The notes under the pieces were generated by a model. The model did not search any database, was not told the origin of the DNA, and saw only the letters and a list, made by a program, of their open reading frames with translations. This document shows, piece after piece, positions 419 to 7,383 of a DNA stretch of 32,000 nucleotides. The stretch is from Trichlorobacter lovleyi SZ (GTDB lineage Bacteria; Desulfobacterota; Desulfuromonadia; Geobacterales; Pseudopelobacteraceae), in NCBI RefSeq assembly GCF_000020385.1, contig NC_010814.1:2520001-2552000 (forward strand). Direction: 5' to 3'. The position numbers were made by a program, and so were the translations under genes. Every line of letters begins with the position of its first letter. Positions within the stretch are counted from its first letter, which is position 1.

Positions 419-1204
419 TTACTCGTTTCCATCTTCAGCAACAAAATGAACCAGGCGGAGGCTGCCCTTGATCCCGTTCAGGCTGATTTCCTGATCAGTG
501 AGCACTCCCTGTGACCTGCGGCCCGGACGTTTCTTGAAGTACTCAACCAAGGCATTGTCCTTGAGCCGGGCTACAAAGAAGATGCCGCTGTCCATCAGGG
601 TCTGATACCAGTCGTAGTCGGTATAACCACGGTCAAAGACCACAAAAGAGCCGGTGGGCAGTTTGAGCAGTCTGGCCCAGTTGATCTCATGCTCTTTGCC
701 GGTGGTGACATCGAAGAACTCTGGCAGATAGCCGTCAGCAGAAAGACCGACATGCAGCTTTATGGCCCCTTTTGCCTTTTGGTAGCTGGCCCAGGGAAAC
801 ACCTTCAGGCAGAGGTTGATGACCGTGGCATCAAGCAGGTACAGCTTGGCGTCCAGCTTGAACCGGTTCTTCGGCGCAATGGCCTGGCAACGACCCAGCA
901 GTTTGTGAAAGATCTCTTTGTACAACTGATGTGGCTGTTCTTCATTCACCCGTGCCAATGTTGAACGGGGTACATCCCTGGTTCCCAGATGATAGAGCTT
1001 ATGTCCTTGAACCTTGAGATTATCAACCAGATCTCGCAGGCTTTTACGGCCCGTTAGCTGGCCAACCAGCATGGCGGTGAACTGGCTCCAACGTGAAAAA
1101 GAACGAAACTGCTGCCCGACATGATGCTTACGGGCGAGGGTCTCAAATTCATGTCTCTTGAAAAAACGAACAACTTGATTAAGGACTGTGTTACTATGTG
1201 GCAC
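419..1204 (-). pseudogene. IS4-family DDE transposase, C-terminally truncated (261 aa versus roughly 370-390 aa expected)
   Basis: GTG start with GAGGAG RBS. The N-terminal region (VVRFFKRHEFETLARKHH..., DUF4372-like) and two Asp motifs (LYLLDATVINL, VVFDRGYTDYDWY) are present. The distal catalytic Glu region (typical RWQIE-LFFK block) is absent in all three minus-strand frames downstream of 419. Confidence 0.75.
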
Positions 1205-2028: not shown

Positions 2029-5000
2029 CTATGGTGTAATCGCCGGCTGACACCAGATGTTTCGGCTTTGCAGTTCCAAAAGCATTTCTGCTGCGCCACT
2101 ATCAAGCGGATTTAGCCCCAGCAATGCTCGCAGAGCGGTTTCACACGCATAGTGATCTGATGCACTCCGGCACAGGAGTTGTGCCCGTTCCAGCGCAGCA
2201 GCAGCATTTTCTTCATCCGCCTCCATGGCCTTTTCAAGGCAGTCAAGACGCTCTGTCCGGTCTGCACACCTATGTGCTTTGTACCACCACCAGGCAGAGA
2301 GGAGCTGCTGGCGAGAGGCGGTGGTTTCTTCGGAGAGCTTCCCCCAGAAAGAATCTGCCGGTATTTTTCCCACCGGGCAATCTGATGACGCCAGCTGTTG
2401 TTCAAGGGTCTGATACATACCGACCAGTTGATTGAACAGGCACCCTCGCTGTCTTAACAAGCTTTCGGAAGGATTCCGCAGGTCAGTACGGTAACGCCGA
2501 TACATCTCTTTCTGGGTTGCCACCATATCCGCTTTATAGCGGGTCGAGGTATTGGTAAGATCGTCCCGGACGCGGTATTCACAGGTGATATGAGGGGCTC
2601 GCCTGACCGGATAGTGGCGTGCGATCCTGATCCACAAATCCCAATCTTCATGTGTTCGTAGCGATTCATCAAACAGACCGACCGTTTCCAGACAACTCCT
2701 CGTATGCACCATGCAGAGAATCGGAATGTAATTTTCGCAGAGCAATTTTTCCCGATCAAACTCGTCCGCATAGATCACCTTACGCTCGGTCGTCACATAG
2801 CTGCCGTCAAGCAGCTGCTGGCATGCGCAGTAGGCATCGCTGTAGGCTGCCTGTACCCCCTGCGCCTGCATAAAATCAATGACGATGGCCAGGTGATCCT
2901 GATAGTACAGGTCATCGTCGTCCAGATAAGCGATGAACTGCCCGCGTGCGGCCCGAATACCGGCGTTCCGTGCTGCAGAGCGTTCCCGCCGTTCAGGCAG
3001 CCGGAGATGCACGATACGGTCGTCACGCATCGAGTCCAAAAGCTCTGTAAGATCGTCTCCGCCGTCGTTTACCACAACGACTTCCAGACTGGAAAGACTT
3101 TGATGCAGGATACTGCTGACAGCTTCCCGCAACATCTCCGGACGGTTATGGGTGGGAACGATAACCGATACGAGAGGCGGGAGAACGTTGCCGGCAACAC
3201 CGGCCCAAAAGCGGGCACCAGTATGGTCGCCGTGCCGTATTGACTTGATAATTCCAAGGTTCTGATGCGCCACTGTATTGGCGGAATCGTAGGCCAGTGC
3301 CTGCACAAACATCGCTTCAGCAAAGTCCAGATCGCTTACCCAGTGCCCGCCCCGGCGATAAAACTGAAACCCCAATGCGCCTGTTTCCACGTAGAGCCGA
3401 GCCAGTTCCTCCCGTTGAGCAGGTAGCGGGCGACCGTAAAGCCGCGCCAGACTTTCCGGCGAGGTATATTGTTTGCGGAGCATGTTCAACTCGTCTCTTC
3501 CTGATTTTTCAGTATGCTCAACGCTTGCAGCATGTTCAAGGTAGAGGCCGAGCGTCGCGGTAATTCGTCTTGCTTTCAGACCGGCACTGGCAAACCGCAG
3601 CATAAACTCACGATCTCCTGCCACCTTCAGATCAGCCCGGTACATCCCGATTTTTTCAAATACAGAACGGCGCAGCATCACTGCATGGGAACTGATCTGA
3701 TAGTACAGCAGCAAGGGAGGATAAAACGGCGGATACCTGAAGTGAAACTGATGCGTATCGTAGTTTAACCGGTCGTTTTCGAGCTTTGTCACCAACCAGT
3801 CACCGTAGGCGGCATCAAGCGCGGGATCAGCATTGAGAGCGTTGGCGAGCAGTTCAAGGGCATTGTTGCAGAAACGGTCATCCGTGTTTGCGTTGATAAG
3901 GTATCGCCCCCGAGCCATACTGACACCACGATTCCAGGCGGCGTAGACCGTTTCCCGCCGATCTGTACGCAGGTAACGGATACGGTCGGGATAGGTCTCC
4001 AAAAACGGCTGGATAGCGGCTAGCTCCTTCTGTGGAGAATCGGAATCAATGATGATCAACTCAAGGCGCCCTTGGGCGAATAATGTCTGTCCGACAAGGT
4101 CTTCAAGCCTGCCGTGTATGAACCGTTCGGCACTGTAGACTGAAATGATTGCCGTTACCGCAGGTAATTTGGAGTCATTGTCAGGGTGTACCACCTTCGG
4201 CGCCTCGTGCGGCGCCAGACCAAGGGCTAAACGACGTACCTCCGGACTATCCGGATTAATCGTCAAGAATTCGCGGCAAAATGCCGCTGCCACCGCATCC
4301 AGCCCCAACCGGCACAGGACCGCAATCATCTCTTCCGCCAGACCGGCATTATACGGCTGATACTCCAGAGCAAAACGGAACTCGTTAAAGGCACGCACGT
4401 ATTCGCCCCGGCACAGGTTGAGACGCCCGAGGTCACGATGGAGACGCGCAGAACAAGGATCGATGGCCGCAGCCCGACTGAGCCGCTGTTCCGCCCCTCT
4501 GCACTCTCCCTGCCCCAGGATATCCTCCCCCTCCTGCAAAAAACGCTGACACTGGTCACGCAGAACTGACAACTTATTCAGCTGCAGCAGCTCCGCAACA
4601 ACGTGCCGCTTTTCGATCAACGTAAGCAGACCGACTTCCCGCTGAAAAAAGTCCACCCGTTCAAGAGGCTGACCATTATGGAGTCTGGCTACTGCCACTC
4701 GAATATCGTCCAGGTAATGTCTCCACGCCGGGCGGGAATCTAAAGACAGAGCAGGGGCAAAACCGGGTTGAGCTATCAGTGCGGCAACCTGTTCACTATC
4801 TATTTTAAACGGTTCCGGCATGGCAGGTAAGGCATCAAGAACCCCGGCAAACCGTGCCCGCTCTGCCGTCAGAATGGTTTTTGCCTCATGATAATACTGC
4901 TCACGGTGCAAATAGCTCTTTTGCGTTCCGTAAACGCGCCGGAATCCGGCCAACAGGGTGTCAACCTGATGAAGCACGGTCACCCTGAAAAAGCGCACCC

Positions 5001-6717
5001 AAAGTTCCAGATCACCTGCCAGCTCAAAGCTGTTTGAAAGTGTGCCGCCTGCAGTCTCCCACAACGAGCGTCTCCAGAAGGTTCCTTCCTGTTGTATGAA
5101 AGGTTTATCAAAGATGCCGTTCAGATATTTACGGCGGCTCAGCACTTCCAAATTTTCTTGAAGATAATAAAGCCTGCCGGCACGGTCCCATTCATTTTGT
5201 CTGCCTGTGATCCACTCGGCTTCCGGGTGGGTCATGAAAACGGAGACCGCCTTGGCAAAGGCCAAGGGGTGAAACTTGTCGTCTGAATTCAACCAGGTCA
5301 TCAGTTCACCACGGGTATGCCGGAACCCTTCGTTGATGGCCTGATACTGTCCGCCATCCGGCCTGCTCTGCCAGTAGCTCAGATGTCTTTCATATTTTCT
5401 GATGATGTCGACAGATCCATCGGTGCTGCCGCCATCCATGATAACGTATTCCAGGTTCGGATAGCCCTGCCCCAGGACTGAATCAATACATTCTTCCAGA
5501 TAGTCAGCCTGGTTGTAGGAGGGAGTCACCAGTGCAAGTGTGGGCAGTGGCGACTTGCAACATATTTGTAAGCTTGCCTTTTCCGGACACTCACGCTGCT
5601 CAGGCAGGGGCGGCTGCAACGATGCGGCATCGGCAGAGCTGTCCCATGTCTGGCTGGAGCAGAACAGGTACCAGCCGTTGCCGAGGTCAACGCAGGGATA
5701 AGGAGCCCCCCCTCCCTGTTGCAGTGTTCCGGCAACCGCGGTGTGGGCAACAAAGCTGTGCTGTTCCTTCAAGTGTTCGGCATCCTGTGCCAGCCCATGC
5801 AGAAAGCCCGGGATGATACGACGCAGCTTTATCAGTTGTTGTTCAAGACAGTTAAGATAGGGAGCAACACAGCTGGTAACGACTTGCACAGGCAGCGGGT
5901 AGTGCAAATCCCGTGCAGGCATGACAACATCAGGTGTCAGGAAGGTAAACGCGTGAAAATGGTAAAAGATGACCGGATTGCCATCCACCAGGGGGCGCCC
6001 TGATGCATCGCATGAGAAGCGATAATTACCGTGATTCCAAGGGGCCACCCCGCCGCCGACATGATCCAGCACCCGCACCCCGGTGAAACGGGCGGGCCAG
6101 TCTTCAAGGTAAAGCTGATCCCCGAATTTACCGTCCTCAACCCGCTGGTAGCACCATTCAAGACAACGATCCCGCCACCAGCTGAGTGCCTCAAGACCAT
6201 CGGCATTGTTTCTGAAACAGAGCAGCCCGACGTTATAGGTGCCGTACCTTGCCAGAAAAGCCAACTGAGGCGAAAAACGATGTTCGTGAATCAGAATCGA
6301 GCTGTCACCAAGTGCTGCATAGATCGGAGCGGTTGATGAAAAGAAGTACAGATCGGCATCCAGGTAGGTGATCACATCGATCAAGGGAAAACGCTTCAGA
6401 AGGCAGGCTATAACGGAAGGTGTCAGGGTCCAGTAGTATTCAACCTGGCTCCGGTTTTGCTTTGCCGATGCCAGACCGCTGTCGCCGGCCTCAATATCAG
6501 CCAGCGGCACCGTAACCACCTGTTTGATCGCCAAACGATTCAGCAGCTCCTGTGTCAGCTCGTCAAGGCAGACCACGTACAGCCTGAACGGATCCGGCTC
6601 ATGAGCGTGCAGGGAACTGATCAGGGCCAGCCCCTTCAGCAGGTAGTTCTTATCAAAATAGGTGCAATAATACCGCATCGGGGGCACTGATATCCCTATA
6701 CCTCCGGTAACATTCAT
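2029..6717 (-). CDS. Giant multidomain glycosyltransferase (1562 aa): GT-A/GT8-like module, GT2 module 1, TPR block, GT2 module 2, GT2 module 3, C-terminal TPR-like helical region
   Basis: - Single uninterrupted ORF.
- Residues about 14-300: YFDKNYLLKGLALISSL...ITYLDADLYFF, a DxD GT-A fold.
- From residue 394 (nt 5538 down): LALVTPSYNQADYLEECIDSVLGQ...IMDGGSTDGS...NSDD.
- TPR at about residues 735-810 (nt 4515-4288).
- From residue 853 (nt 4161): VTAIISVYSAERF...IIIDSDSP...NTDD.
- From residue 1183 (nt 3171): VSVIVPTHNRPEML...VVVNDGGDD...YLDDDD.
- The start could instead be the Met at 6678. Confidence 0.8.
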   Translation of the reverse strand: MNVTGGIGISVPPMRYYCTYFDKNYLLKGLALISSLHAHEPDPFRLYVVCLDELTQELLNRLAIKQVVTVPLADIEAGDSGLASAKQNRSQVEYYWTLTPSVIACLLKRFPLIDVITYLDADLYFFSSTAPIYAALGDSSILIHEHRFSPQLAFLARYGTYNVGLLCFRNNADGLEALSWWRDRCLEWCYQRVEDGKFGDQLYLEDWPARFTGVRVLDHVGGGVAPWNHGNYRFSCDASGRPLVDGNPVIFYHFHAFTFLTPDVVMPARDLHYPLPVQVVTSCVAPYLNCLEQQLIKLRRIIPGFLHGLAQDAEHLKEQHSFVAHTAVAGTLQQGGGAPYPCVDLGNGWYLFCSSQTWDSSADAASLQPPLPEQRECPEKASLQICCKSPLPTLALVTPSYNQADYLEECIDSVLGQGYPNLEYVIMDGGSTDGSVDIIRKYERHLSYWQSRPDGGQYQAINEGFRHTRGELMTWLNSDDKFHPLAFAKAVSVFMTHPEAEWITGRQNEWDRAGRLYYLQENLEVLSRRKYLNGIFDKPFIQQEGTFWRRSLWETAGGTLSNSFELAGDLELWVRFFRVTVLHQVDTLLAGFRRVYGTQKSYLHREQYYHEAKTILTAERARFAGVLDALPAMPEPFKIDSEQVAALIAQPGFAPALSLDSRPAWRHYLDDIRVAVARLHNGQPLERVDFFQREVGLLTLIEKRHVVAELLQLNKLSVLRDQCQRFLQEGEDILGQGECRGAEQRLSRAAAIDPCSARLHRDLGRLNLCRGEYVRAFNEFRFALEYQPYNAGLAEEMIAVLCRLGLDAVAAAFCREFLTINPDSPEVRRLALGLAPHEAPKVVHPDNDSKLPAVTAIISVYSAERFIHGRLEDLVGQTLFAQGRLELIIIDSDSPQKELAAIQPFLETYPDRIRYLRTDRRETVYAAWNRGVSMARGRYLINANTDDRFCNNALELLANALNADPALDAAYGDWLVTKLENDRLNYDTHQFHFRYPPFYPPLLLYYQISSHAVMLRRSVFEKIGMYRADLKVAGDREFMLRFASAGLKARRITATLGLYLEHAASVEHTEKSGRDELNMLRKQYTSPESLARLYGRPLPAQREELARLYVETGALGFQFYRRGGHWVSDLDFAEAMFVQALAYDSANTVAHQNLGIIKSIRHGDHTGARFWAGVAGNVLPPLVSVIVPTHNRPEMLREAVSSILHQSLSSLEVVVVNDGGDDLTELLDSMRDDRIVHLRLPERRERSAARNAGIRAARGQFIAYLDDDDLYYQDHLAIVIDFMQAQGVQAAYSDAYCACQQLLDGSYVTTERKVIYADEFDREKLLCENYIPILCMVHTRSCLETVGLFDESLRTHEDWDLWIRIARHYPVRRAPHITCEYRVRDDLTNTSTRYKADMVATQKEMYRRYRTDLRNPSESLLRQRGCLFNQLVGMYQTLEQQLASSDCPVGKIPADSFWGKLSEETTASRQQLLSAWWWYKAHRCADRTERLDCLEKAMEADEENAAAALERAQLLCRSASDHYACETALRALLGLNPLDSGAAEMLLELQSRNIWCQPAITP

Positions 6718-6720
6718 TGC

Positions 6721-7383
6721 CTATCCGCGCCCAAGCAGCCGGTTGGCTGCTGCGTTGTTCGAAAAGCGCTGAGGCAGGGCGTATGCCTTTTGAGGCATTG
6801 CCACAAAATCACCTTTGGTCAAGGTTACGTAAACCGATCGTATCTCATGGGCTTCATTGGTTCCCGGATAGATAATTCCCAGACTGGCAGGCACATAGAG
6901 GCGCCAATCACACTCAAGAACCTTAAAACCGGCGCAGTTGCTCAAATAACGTAAACAGTCCGGGGTATACCGCCAAAAATCACCGGGTGACGGATGGTAG
7001 GGATAGGCAAAAACGGTTTCAATAATCAGCAAACTGTTATCTTTCATTATTTTAAACAGTGCGTCGAAAACCTTGAAAGGATTTTTGACATGCTCGATAA
7101 CATTCAGACAGACAGCGGTACTCACTCTGTTTTCAAAGATATAGGGCAAATATTCTATTGCAGGGTCACCCTTCTCCGGATTCAAAATTATATAGTCAGG
7201 ATCAATATGATCAAACGGACGCTGCGCCAATGATATCGAGCTGGCCTCCTGATCACCGCTAGCAATAGTCAGATCATAGTCGGCAATATACGGCTGTTCC
7301 ATCCCGCCTATGTCGACAAGCGTTCCGCGCAGGCCATAGCGTGCTATTTGCTCTGTTACCAGCTTGATATCATCCCAGAACAT
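6721..7383 (-). CDS. Class I SAM-dependent methyltransferase (about 220 aa)
   Basis: It has a TLVDIGG glycine-rich motif and a downstream CLNVIEHVKNPFKVFDALFKIMKDNSLLIIE block typical of Methyltransf_11/23-type enzymes. I prefer the ATG at 7383 because it overlaps the upstream stop as TAATG and has a GGAGAG RBS. The longest ORF would start at 7404. Confidence 0.6.
   Translation of the reverse strand: MFWDDIKLVTEQIARYGLRGTLVDIGGMEQPYIADYDLTIASGDQEASSISLAQRPFDHIDPDYIILNPEKGDPAIEYLPYIFENRVSTAVCLNVIEHVKNPFKVFDALFKIMKDNSLLIIETVFAYPYHPSPGDFWRYTPDCLRYLSNCAGFKVLECDWRLYVPASLGIIYPGTNEAHEIRSVYVTLTKGDFVAMPQKAYALPQRFSNNAAANRLLGRG

Follow-up and report, generated by a model that had tools for sequence, protein, structure and literature searches.

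The gene ACD96063.1 (UniProt B3E576) of Trichlorobacter (formerly Geobacter) lovleyi SZ encodes a giant glycosyltransferase (GT) in which one GT8-like and three GT2 modules, all of the GT-A type, are joined with a block of tetratricopeptide repeats (TPR) in one polypeptide. It lies in a window of 32,000 nucleotides (contig NC_010814.1, positions 2,520,001 to 2,552,000), which is the whole stretch of DNA that was analysed and to which the coordinates below refer unless another locus is named. The four-module fusion was confirmed as genuine, and the enzyme probably works together with tailoring enzymes for methyl transfer, sulfation and radical S-adenosylmethionine (SAM) chemistry that are encoded in the same operon. 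Flagellin is the acceptor tentatively preferred. The protein is already annotated, as 'glycosyl transferase family 2', is uncharacterised, and combines known kinds of enzyme. The open reading frame (ORF) and the regions of its product, from the N-terminus to the C-terminus, are as follows.

2029..6717, minus strand: GT ORF of 1562 aa by ORF call, corresponding to ACD96063.1
5638..6678, minus strand: GT8-like GT-A module (N-module), aa 14-360, from a sub-threshold Pfam GT8 match, AlphaFold2, Foldseek and invariant motifs; its motifs are YFD, D120-A-D122, N162-V-G, G-D200-Q201, W-N and FYH253FH
4918..5544, minus strand: GT2 module a (GT2a), aa 392-600, from PF00535 and a match to K4CP; D428 in DGGSTD, D479-D480 in NSDD, D569 in AGDLELW
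4213..4605, minus strand: TPR block, from Pfam TPR families and AlphaFold2: a long helix (aa 705-735), then three repeats in six helices (aa 739-833)
3538..4164, minus strand: GT2 module b (GT2b), aa 852-1060, from PF00535 and a match to 6p61; D891 in DSDSP, D946-D947 in NTDD, D1035 in AGDREFM
2518..3177, minus strand: GT2 module c (GT2c), aa 1181-1400, from PF00535 and a match to 9jma; D1218 in NDGG, D1266-D1269 in DDDD, E1357-D1358 in HEDWDLW
2053..2331, minus strand: C-terminal helical region, five helices at aa 1463-1554, from AlphaFold2 with a predicted local distance difference test score (pLDDT) of about 58-73

The first-pass annotation had described a single continuous ORF of 1562 aa, and the protein was found as an exact match in the complete 3.92-Mb chromosome of strain SZ. 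The RefSeq start is Met14 (window position 6678), which gives a product of 1549 aa, and this start is matched by all homologues, whose first residues read M(K/T)RYYCTYFD. The chance of 1562 stop-free codons, calculated from the base composition of the window, is about 10^-27.8. The 90% identity cluster of the protein holds 22 sequences, full-length copies are present in NCBI, JGI, ENA and Logan assemblies, and the orthologue in a Logan assembly of another Trichlorobacter-like lineage (locus L001; 84% identical, 1556 aa) is likewise fused and lies in the same synteny. An ORF fused by assembly or frameshift error, or a decaying gene with some dead modules, could be suspected from sister strain CP058409.1, which carries the gene as two ORFs, but both halves are intact in that strain, the first is 92% identical to the SZ protein, and every catalytic motif is present and conserved. 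Because the fusion is found in a finished genome, in many independent assemblies and in the fused orthologue, an assembly artefact was rejected, and artefact or decay is regarded as scarcely credible.

When the whole protein was searched with Pfam PF00535, three separate stretches were matched, and the segment scores of GT2a, GT2b and GT2c (87.3, 60.7 and 101.8 bits) all exceed the gathering cut-off of 23.3. Each GT2 module carries a first acidic motif, a DxD-type motif and a catalytic-base Asp or Glu. The motifs quoted in the first-pass annotation are all in place: DAD at residues 120-122, LALVTPSYNQ at 394-403, NSDD at 477-480, VTAIISVYSA at 854-863, NTDD at 944-947, VSVIVPTHNR at 1183-1192 and DDDD at 1266-1269. 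Conservation of the motif columns was read from hmmalign alignments of homologous domains. The GT2a motif residues are at least 98% conserved (85 domains); in GT2b, D947 and D1035 are 97% and 99% conserved (113 domains) and D946 alternates with N; in GT2c, five of the six motif residues checked are at least 97% conserved and D1267 is retained in 31 of 38 domains. With the exception of D946, conservation of the GT2 motif residues thus spans 82-100% in sets of 38-113 domains.

The nearest solved relatives of the three modules, by sequence matching against the PDB, are the chondroitin polymerase K4CP for GT2a (E = 5e-15), a Leptospira GT (6p61) for GT2b (E = 1.3e-7) and AvpGT (9jma), a PglI-like beta-1,3-glucosyltransferase, for GT2c (E = 1e-24, motifs aligned). 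An AlphaFold2 model of aa 381-1562 has GT2 cores of alternating strands and helices with pLDDT of about 65-90; its predicted template modelling score (pTM) is 0.35, and the geometry between domains is unreliable. In a Foldseek search with the same region all matches were GT2 structures with probability 1.0. Mutual identity of the three GT2 modules is 22-28%, and a recent tandem duplication was rejected on account of this low identity.

The N-module does not reach the cut-off of Pfam GT8 (PF01501; cut-off 24.3, with 17.9 bits when the whole protein is scanned and 20.7 bits when the segment is scanned alone), whereas its paralogue ACD97072.1 just does so with 24.5 bits. No NCBIfam match was obtained for the N-module, and its family profile gave only chance matches among PDB sequences (E of about 0.8-0.9). 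An AlphaFold2 model built from an alignment of 23 sequences has a pLDDT of 89 and a pTM of 0.88, and almost all of the 50 PDB structures listed by Foldseek for this model are GT8 enzymes, with probability 1.0, TM-scores of 0.4-0.6 and E-values, among the matches listed, from 2.7e-9 to about 1e-7. LARGE1 is the top match, and glycogenin, XXYLT1, LgtC, the Skp1 galactosyltransferase and WbbM are also found. Across 23 members of the N-module family, D120xD122, N162, D200-Q201 and H253 are invariant; the DxD, N-x-G, D-Q and late His resemble the GT8 catalytic set, and these residues may be equivalent to those of LgtC and glycogenin. On the modelled structure, the N-module is assigned to the GT8-type GT-A fold. 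Domain parsing and structure prediction therefore bear out the earlier proposal of four GT-A modules with intact motifs, three through PF00535 matches above threshold and one as GT8-like by fold, with motifs conserved across homologues.

In species-representative genomes the N-module family occupies at least 594 loci, and at the 50% identity level 2133 representatives were counted (E <= 1e-30). Among 76 loci that were compared, the N-module is a stand-alone gene (<450 aa, about 320-450) in 39 and the N-terminus of proteins of at least 900 aa, up to 3193 aa, in 22. A DegT aminotransferase gene precedes the N-module gene in 52 of these loci and an SDR epimerase/dehydratase gene in 42, and an amino-deoxy sugar is therefore suggested as the substrate that the module would handle.

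The TPR block, which had been placed at about residues 735-810, is a genuine block at aa 739-833 by Pfam and AlphaFold2. The Pfam matches, at aa 729-830, lie at threshold (TPR_14, 24.7 bits against 23.5; TPR_19, 24.5 against 25; TPR_16, 23.9 against 32.7), and in the model the block consists of six helices, each 9-14 residues long, with a block-mean pLDDT of about 69-88, mostly 78-88. The C-terminus had been called helical and TPR-like: its helical nature was upheld by AlphaFold2, whereas likeness to TPR is weakly supported, with no significant Pfam TPR match at aa 1463-1554 (best TPR_14, E = 1.5). Outside Trichlorobacter this region was matched by a single homologue (P0008). A possible single TPR-like repeat is present in the linker between GT2b and GT2c (aa 1129-1161) and is kept in the cyanobacterial homologue P0010. 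No transmembrane helix was found in the protein; the maximum Kyte-Doolittle value over 19 residues is 1.64 and lies within a TPR helix.

The first-pass annotation had considered four GT modules with TPR to be unusual, and this view was not sustained. In a homologue search, 399 proteins were obtained at E <= 1e-10 among 8000 candidates scored, and the best 120 were listed. These derive from Geomonas, Citrifermentans, Nitrospira, cyanobacteria and many metagenomes, and most are 900-2700 aa in length with several GT2 modules accompanied by TPRs, GT4 modules and methyltransferases. When N-type and GT2 modules only were counted and GT4 was left out, at least four GT-A modules were found in 22 of the best 120 proteins, with five in six of them; TPR families are present in many of these 22. 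The SZ genome itself encodes a second such protein, ACD97080.1 (1435 aa), which has four PF00535 stretches and C-terminal TPRs and is located beside flagellin genes. Pelotalea chapellei and metagenome-assembled genomes of Geobacter carry N-module giants within islands in which giant GT genes follow one another over more than 20 kb. Environmental bacteria commonly encode multi-GT giants, and the architecture cannot be called unusual; among the best 120 homologues, the specific order N-module, GT2a, TPR, GT2b, GT2c was found only in Trichlorobacter. The trio GT2a, GT2b and GT2c is colinear in several cyanobacterial giants (P0010, P0024, P0045), where it is without the TPR insert. These three proteins end in a long Q/E-rich, coiled-coil-like region, which takes the position of the helical repeat of the T. 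lovleyi protein, a difference that may reflect different acceptor selection or chain-length control.

Orthologues in which the modules are separate genes were also found. T. lovleyi CP058409.1 (locus L083, 10001-14774) has the same cassette with the GT as two intact ORFs of 829 and 734 aa. The first contains the N-module, GT2a and TPR and is 92% identical to aa 14-838; the second contains GT2b, the linker, GT2c and the C-terminus. The split is at the boundary of TPR and GT2b, with about 80 nt of unrelated sequence in place of the linker, and the 829-aa form was found in a second assembly (P0124). Because of this split allele and the stand-alone N-module genes, the fusion is evidently facultative, and covalent linkage of the modules is not required. 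Obligatory channelling of intermediates, as would be expected of the assembly line that had been proposed, is not supported, and synthesis of a defined oligosaccharide can reasonably be inferred. As T. lovleyi is cultivable, the fused and split alleles form a natural pair for asking whether fusion matters.

The GT gene is the last of a tight four-gene unit on the minus strand. The further features of this unit are as follows.

10925..10949, minus strand: motif resembling a sigma-28 (FliA) promoter, TAAA-N15-GCCGATTT, which precedes the sulfotransferase start by about 110 nt
10063..10815, minus strand: sulfotransferase, first gene of the cassette, PF00685 by Pfam
7383..10010, minus strand: fusion protein of 875 aa, with a TIGR04325-family methyltransferase at aa 249-479 and a radical SAM/SPASM domain at aa 560-875
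6721..7404, minus strand: SAM-dependent methyltransferase of 227 aa, PF13489
1945..1973, minus strand: hairpin with a 13-bp stem, 56 nt past the GT stop codon, from a consensus scan only and with a weak T tail

The gene of the 227-aa methyltransferase overlaps the end of the gene upstream of it, and its stop is 3 nt ahead of the GT ATG; the hairpin is the likely end of the operon. The four-gene cassette is conserved, between housekeeping genes, in all three Trichlorobacter genomes (SZ, L001 and CP058409.1). Homologues of the 227-aa methyltransferase (34-68% identity) are located close upstream of N-module genes in nine other loci, and in three loci (L021, L032 and L035) such a homologue directly abuts the N-module gene. 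Methyltransferases of the TIGR04325 type are found near N-module genes in ten further loci besides L001, and radical SAM/SPASM proteins in three; in P. chapellei, radical SAM/SPASM is fused to the small methyltransferase. On this genomic context, the accessory enzymes of the cassette are not accidental neighbours.

For aa 1-240 of the 875-aa fusion (9291-10010, minus strand), no sequence match was found in Pfam, NCBIfam or PDB, and a tentative assignment to a Maf/DUF115-like domain was dropped on this ground. In a Nitrospira locus (L075), this domain is found together with a methyltransferase of the TIGR04325 type. The G+C fraction is 0.44-0.50 across 7001-11000, where the sulfotransferase, the fusion and the methyltransferase are encoded, compared with about 0.54-0.58 in the GT gene and most of the window; the accessory genes may be of different, possibly horizontal, origin. 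On the 3' side of the GT gene, strain SZ has a short DDE transposase ORF (DUF4372 and DDE_Tnp_1; 419-1204, minus strand) and small ORFs at 1304-1600 and 1593-1772, whereas in L001 and CP058409.1 the GT gene is directly followed by ribonucleotide reductase. Positions 1-2028 of the window look like mobile-element DNA inserted in SZ.

Taken together with the modules, this cassette is consistent with the following scheme. ACD96063.1 would be a soluble, cytoplasmic, multi-module Leloir glycosyltransferase in which the GT8-like module is presumably retaining and the three divergent GT2 modules are presumably inverting, and each module would add a different sugar or linkage to give a short hetero-oligosaccharide. 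The TPR block, perhaps also the helical C-terminus, would dock the enzyme on its acceptor protein or on partner enzymes. The sulfotransferase, of the 3'-phosphoadenosine-5'-phosphosulfate (PAPS) type, the methyltransferase-radical SAM/SPASM fusion and the small methyltransferase would tailor the sugars by O-, N- or C-methylation, radical chemistry and sulfation. If flagellin is the acceptor, it would be glycosylated in the cytoplasm ahead of export, and the cassette would either supplement the enzymes of the flagellin island described below or act as an alternative to them. Within this scheme, the catalytic activity of the modules, the order in which they act, their sugar donors and flagellin as acceptor are drawn from sequence and genomic context.

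Flagellin (ACD97076/ACD97077) is the foremost single candidate for the acceptor, tentatively held, because of relatives and paralogues in flagellin islands, the proximity of N-module giants to flagellin genes, the sigma-28-like motif and the analogy to the TPR domain of FlmG. Flagellin genes in the N-module loci were detected using an iterated hidden Markov model, with distances of 10 kb allowed for flagellin and 8 kb for Wzt. A flagellin gene is found within 10 kb of 12 of the 22 N-module giants (at least 900 aa, the SZ protein and L002 counted). Outside the species, the closest homologue is P0003, which is 49% identical over the N-module, GT2a, TPR and GT2b; its gene is inside a flagellin island, where it immediately follows SDR and DegT genes, and the flagellins of the same organism are 84-89% identical to the two of SZ. 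The flagellin island of SZ itself is located as follows.

Locus L084, 1-20828: SZ flagellin island, ACD97072-ACD97080, gene order as accession order

It comprises the stand-alone N-module paralogue ACD97072.1 (51% identical), the two flagellin genes (ACD97076/ACD97077) with FlbT, two TPR-GT41 (OGT-like) proteins, ACD97080.1, a 306-aa all-TPR protein, a giant GT-methyltransferase-B12-radical SAM protein, an SDR gene and, at the far end, a DegT gene. These genes point to a very elaborate, unstudied flagellin glycan in Trichlorobacter. Motility of strain SZ is itself taken from the presence of flagellin genes.

The sigma-28-like motif upstream of the sulfotransferase is conserved as a block in the two other Trichlorobacter genomes. 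The textbook pattern, TAAA-N15-GCCGAT, has one match in the 32-kb window, with 0.04 expected. This consensus comes from E. coli and Salmonella. A degenerate pattern derived from the species matches only the cassette upstream regions and two flagellin promoters in L084; as it is circular for the window and misses the flagellin promoters in L087, it was not relied on.

Several observations weigh against flagellin as the acceptor. The cassette is away from flagellar genes, of which none is found in the 32-kb window, and in sister strain CP058409.1 about 1.1 Mb separate it from the flagellin island. It is without the SDR and DegT genes that precede so many N-module genes and that are both present in the SZ flagellin island. 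The sigma-28 consensus is enterobacterial, the -10 element of the cassette motif matches it at 6 of 8 positions, and T. lovleyi flagellin promoters read TCAA-N16 where the cassette has TAAA-N15. The N-module family also occurs in polysaccharide contexts with Wzt, and the nearest solved relatives of the GT2 modules (K4CP, the PglI-like AvpGT and WrtF) use lipid-linked or polysaccharide acceptors. In the literature searched, neither biochemical data for members of the protein family nor flagellin glycosylation in Trichlorobacter or Geobacter was found. In its most specific form, in which the enzyme of a self-contained, FliA-controlled cassette would dock on flagellin through its TPRs and build on Ser/Thr a tetrasaccharide that is then C- or O-methylated, radical SAM-modified and sulfated, the proposal is considered unlikely.

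The next most probable reading, unlikely in itself, is that the enzyme works on the cytoplasmic side of the membrane and there makes a lipid-linked oligo- or polysaccharide (lipopolysaccharide O-antigen, capsule or exopolysaccharide), like the multi-module polymerases of ABC-transporter-dependent pathways, with methyl and sulfate groups as decorations or terminators and the TPRs holding a complex together. The best partial NCBIfam matches (TuaG, EpsE, WcaA and PglI, all far under their cut-offs) are in line with it, as are the closest solved folds, which are the two-module polymerases K4CP and PmHS2, and the Klebsiella O-antigen multi-module GTs with terminating methyltransferases are an established precedent (PMC11231755). 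Wzt genes are present near stand-alone N-module genes in 10 of 39 loci, but within 8 kb of none of the 22 N-module giants; among the 76 loci they accompany only the shorter N-module genes. Nor were linked wzm/wzt or kps genes, wzx/wzy, an initiating phosphoglycosyltransferase, a ligase, an export gene or a coiled-coil terminator found among the ORFs of at least 150 aa in the window or in the two syntenic loci. The protein also has no transmembrane or obvious membrane-anchoring segment, and the coiled-coil ruler that cyanobacterial relatives have in place of the TPR-like C-terminus is absent from it.

The TPRs could instead select another protein for glycosylation; type IV pilins, S-layer or outer-surface proteins and secreted cytochromes are examples. 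The position of the cassette among housekeeping genes, away from a flagellin island that has a large GT complement of its own, is compatible with such a target, and pilin is described as the substrate of the TPR-GT enzyme Ogt of Synechococcus (PMC9306852). This reading is nevertheless held to be improbable: the context points to no specific alternative target, the informative contexts of close relatives and paralogues are all flagellar, and the sigma-28-like motif is located upstream of the operon.

SPASM-domain radical SAM enzymes are often peptide maturases, and some ribosomally synthesised and post-translationally modified peptides (RiPPs) are glycosylated by GT2 enzymes. The radical SAM/SPASM domain of the cassette has weak NCBIfam similarity to several peptide maturases, and could modify a precursor peptide that the GT glycosylates. 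However, no precursor-like small ORF, protease or exporter is seen in the conserved cassette, the domain is fused to a methyltransferase of the sugar-cluster family TIGR04325, and homologues of the radical SAM, TIGR04325 and small methyltransferase proteins recur beside SDR, DegT and N-module genes. With no precursor and with accessory enzymes that recur in sugar contexts, a RiPP cassette was rejected as very improbable. After flagellin, the readings rank in the order polysaccharide, other protein, RiPP and artefact.

Elsewhere in the window, a c-di-GMP-I (GEMM-I) riboswitch aptamer (RF01051) was found at 14760-14834 on the minus strand (60 bits against a gathering cut-off of 35); a 75-aa ORF (14331-14558, minus strand) lies about 200 nt downstream of it. 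Geobacter relatives carry many riboswitches of the c-di-GMP-I type, some of which sense cyclic GMP-AMP (cGAMP).

ACD96063.1 shares features with several known systems. GmaR of Listeria is a TPR-guided cytoplasmic flagellin O-glycosyltransferase. In FlmG of Caulobacter crescentus, TPR repeats are fused to a Leloir glycosyltransferase, as in ACD96063.1, and the TPR domain binds flagellin and is needed for its modification (PMC7591256). FlmG differs in having one GT-B domain that transfers a single pseudaminic acid, whereas ACD96063.1 has four GT-A modules and internal TPRs; there is no sequence relationship between the two, and the gene of ACD96063.1 sits outside the flagellar locus. K4CP of E. 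coli K4 (2z86/2z87), the Pasteurella heparosan synthase PmHS2 (8vh7) and LARGE1 (7ui6) are likewise single polypeptides, soluble or peripheral, with several GT-A modules. When aa 381-1562 were searched with Foldseek, K4CP and PmHS2 came out best (E from 1.6e-20 to 1e-14); in LARGE1, the top fold match of the N-module, a GT8 module is combined with another GT-A module. All three are two-module enzymes that polymerise repeating disaccharides on glycan acceptors, whereas ACD96063.1 has four divergent modules with TPRs and no transporter or polysaccharide-pathway genes nearby.

In the ABC-transporter-dependent O-antigen enzymes, such as Klebsiella WbbM (6u4b, among the fold matches of the N-module), the O4/O7 enzymes and E. 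coli WbdA/WbdD, modules are variably spread over single- and multi-module proteins and methyltransferase terminators are associated (PMC11231755). The split and fused forms in T. lovleyi strains mirror this plasticity; coiled-coil molecular rulers and linkage to wzm/wzt are found there, and neither was found for ACD96063.1. The closest relatives in kind are likewise uncharacterised. ACD97080.1 belongs to the same class, with at least three to four GT-A modules and TPR, and is next to flbT and flagellin genes, but is without a GT8-like module, and its GT2 modules are about 25-30% identical to those of ACD96063.1. The giants of the Nitrospira type (about 1400 aa; N-module, GT2, TPR and FkbM) have an N-module that is about 50% identical and are encoded upstream of flagellin, at a distance of about 5.5 kb.

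As a class, multi-GT giants that carry TPRs and are encoded in flagellin islands appear not to have been described in the literature searched. The size of the N-module family, together with its failure to reach any curated Pfam or NCBIfam threshold in the SZ protein, makes the family a candidate for formal description. If flagellin is not the acceptor, the gene would be an ordinary, already annotated multi-domain protein of the GT2 family. If it is, and if the most specific form of the proposal holds, the product would be a sulfated, radical SAM-tailored flagellin glycan of a kind hitherto undescribed, with the first sugar added by a GT8-like family that is without a curated model of its own. 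With flagellin as the acceptor, the enzyme would join the multi-module synthesis of polymerases to the TPR-based target selection of single-sugar flagellin transferases, and it and the hundreds of comparable giants of Geobacterales, Nitrospira, cyanobacteria and others would represent a widespread, entirely uncharacterised route to complex protein-linked glycans made in the cytoplasm.

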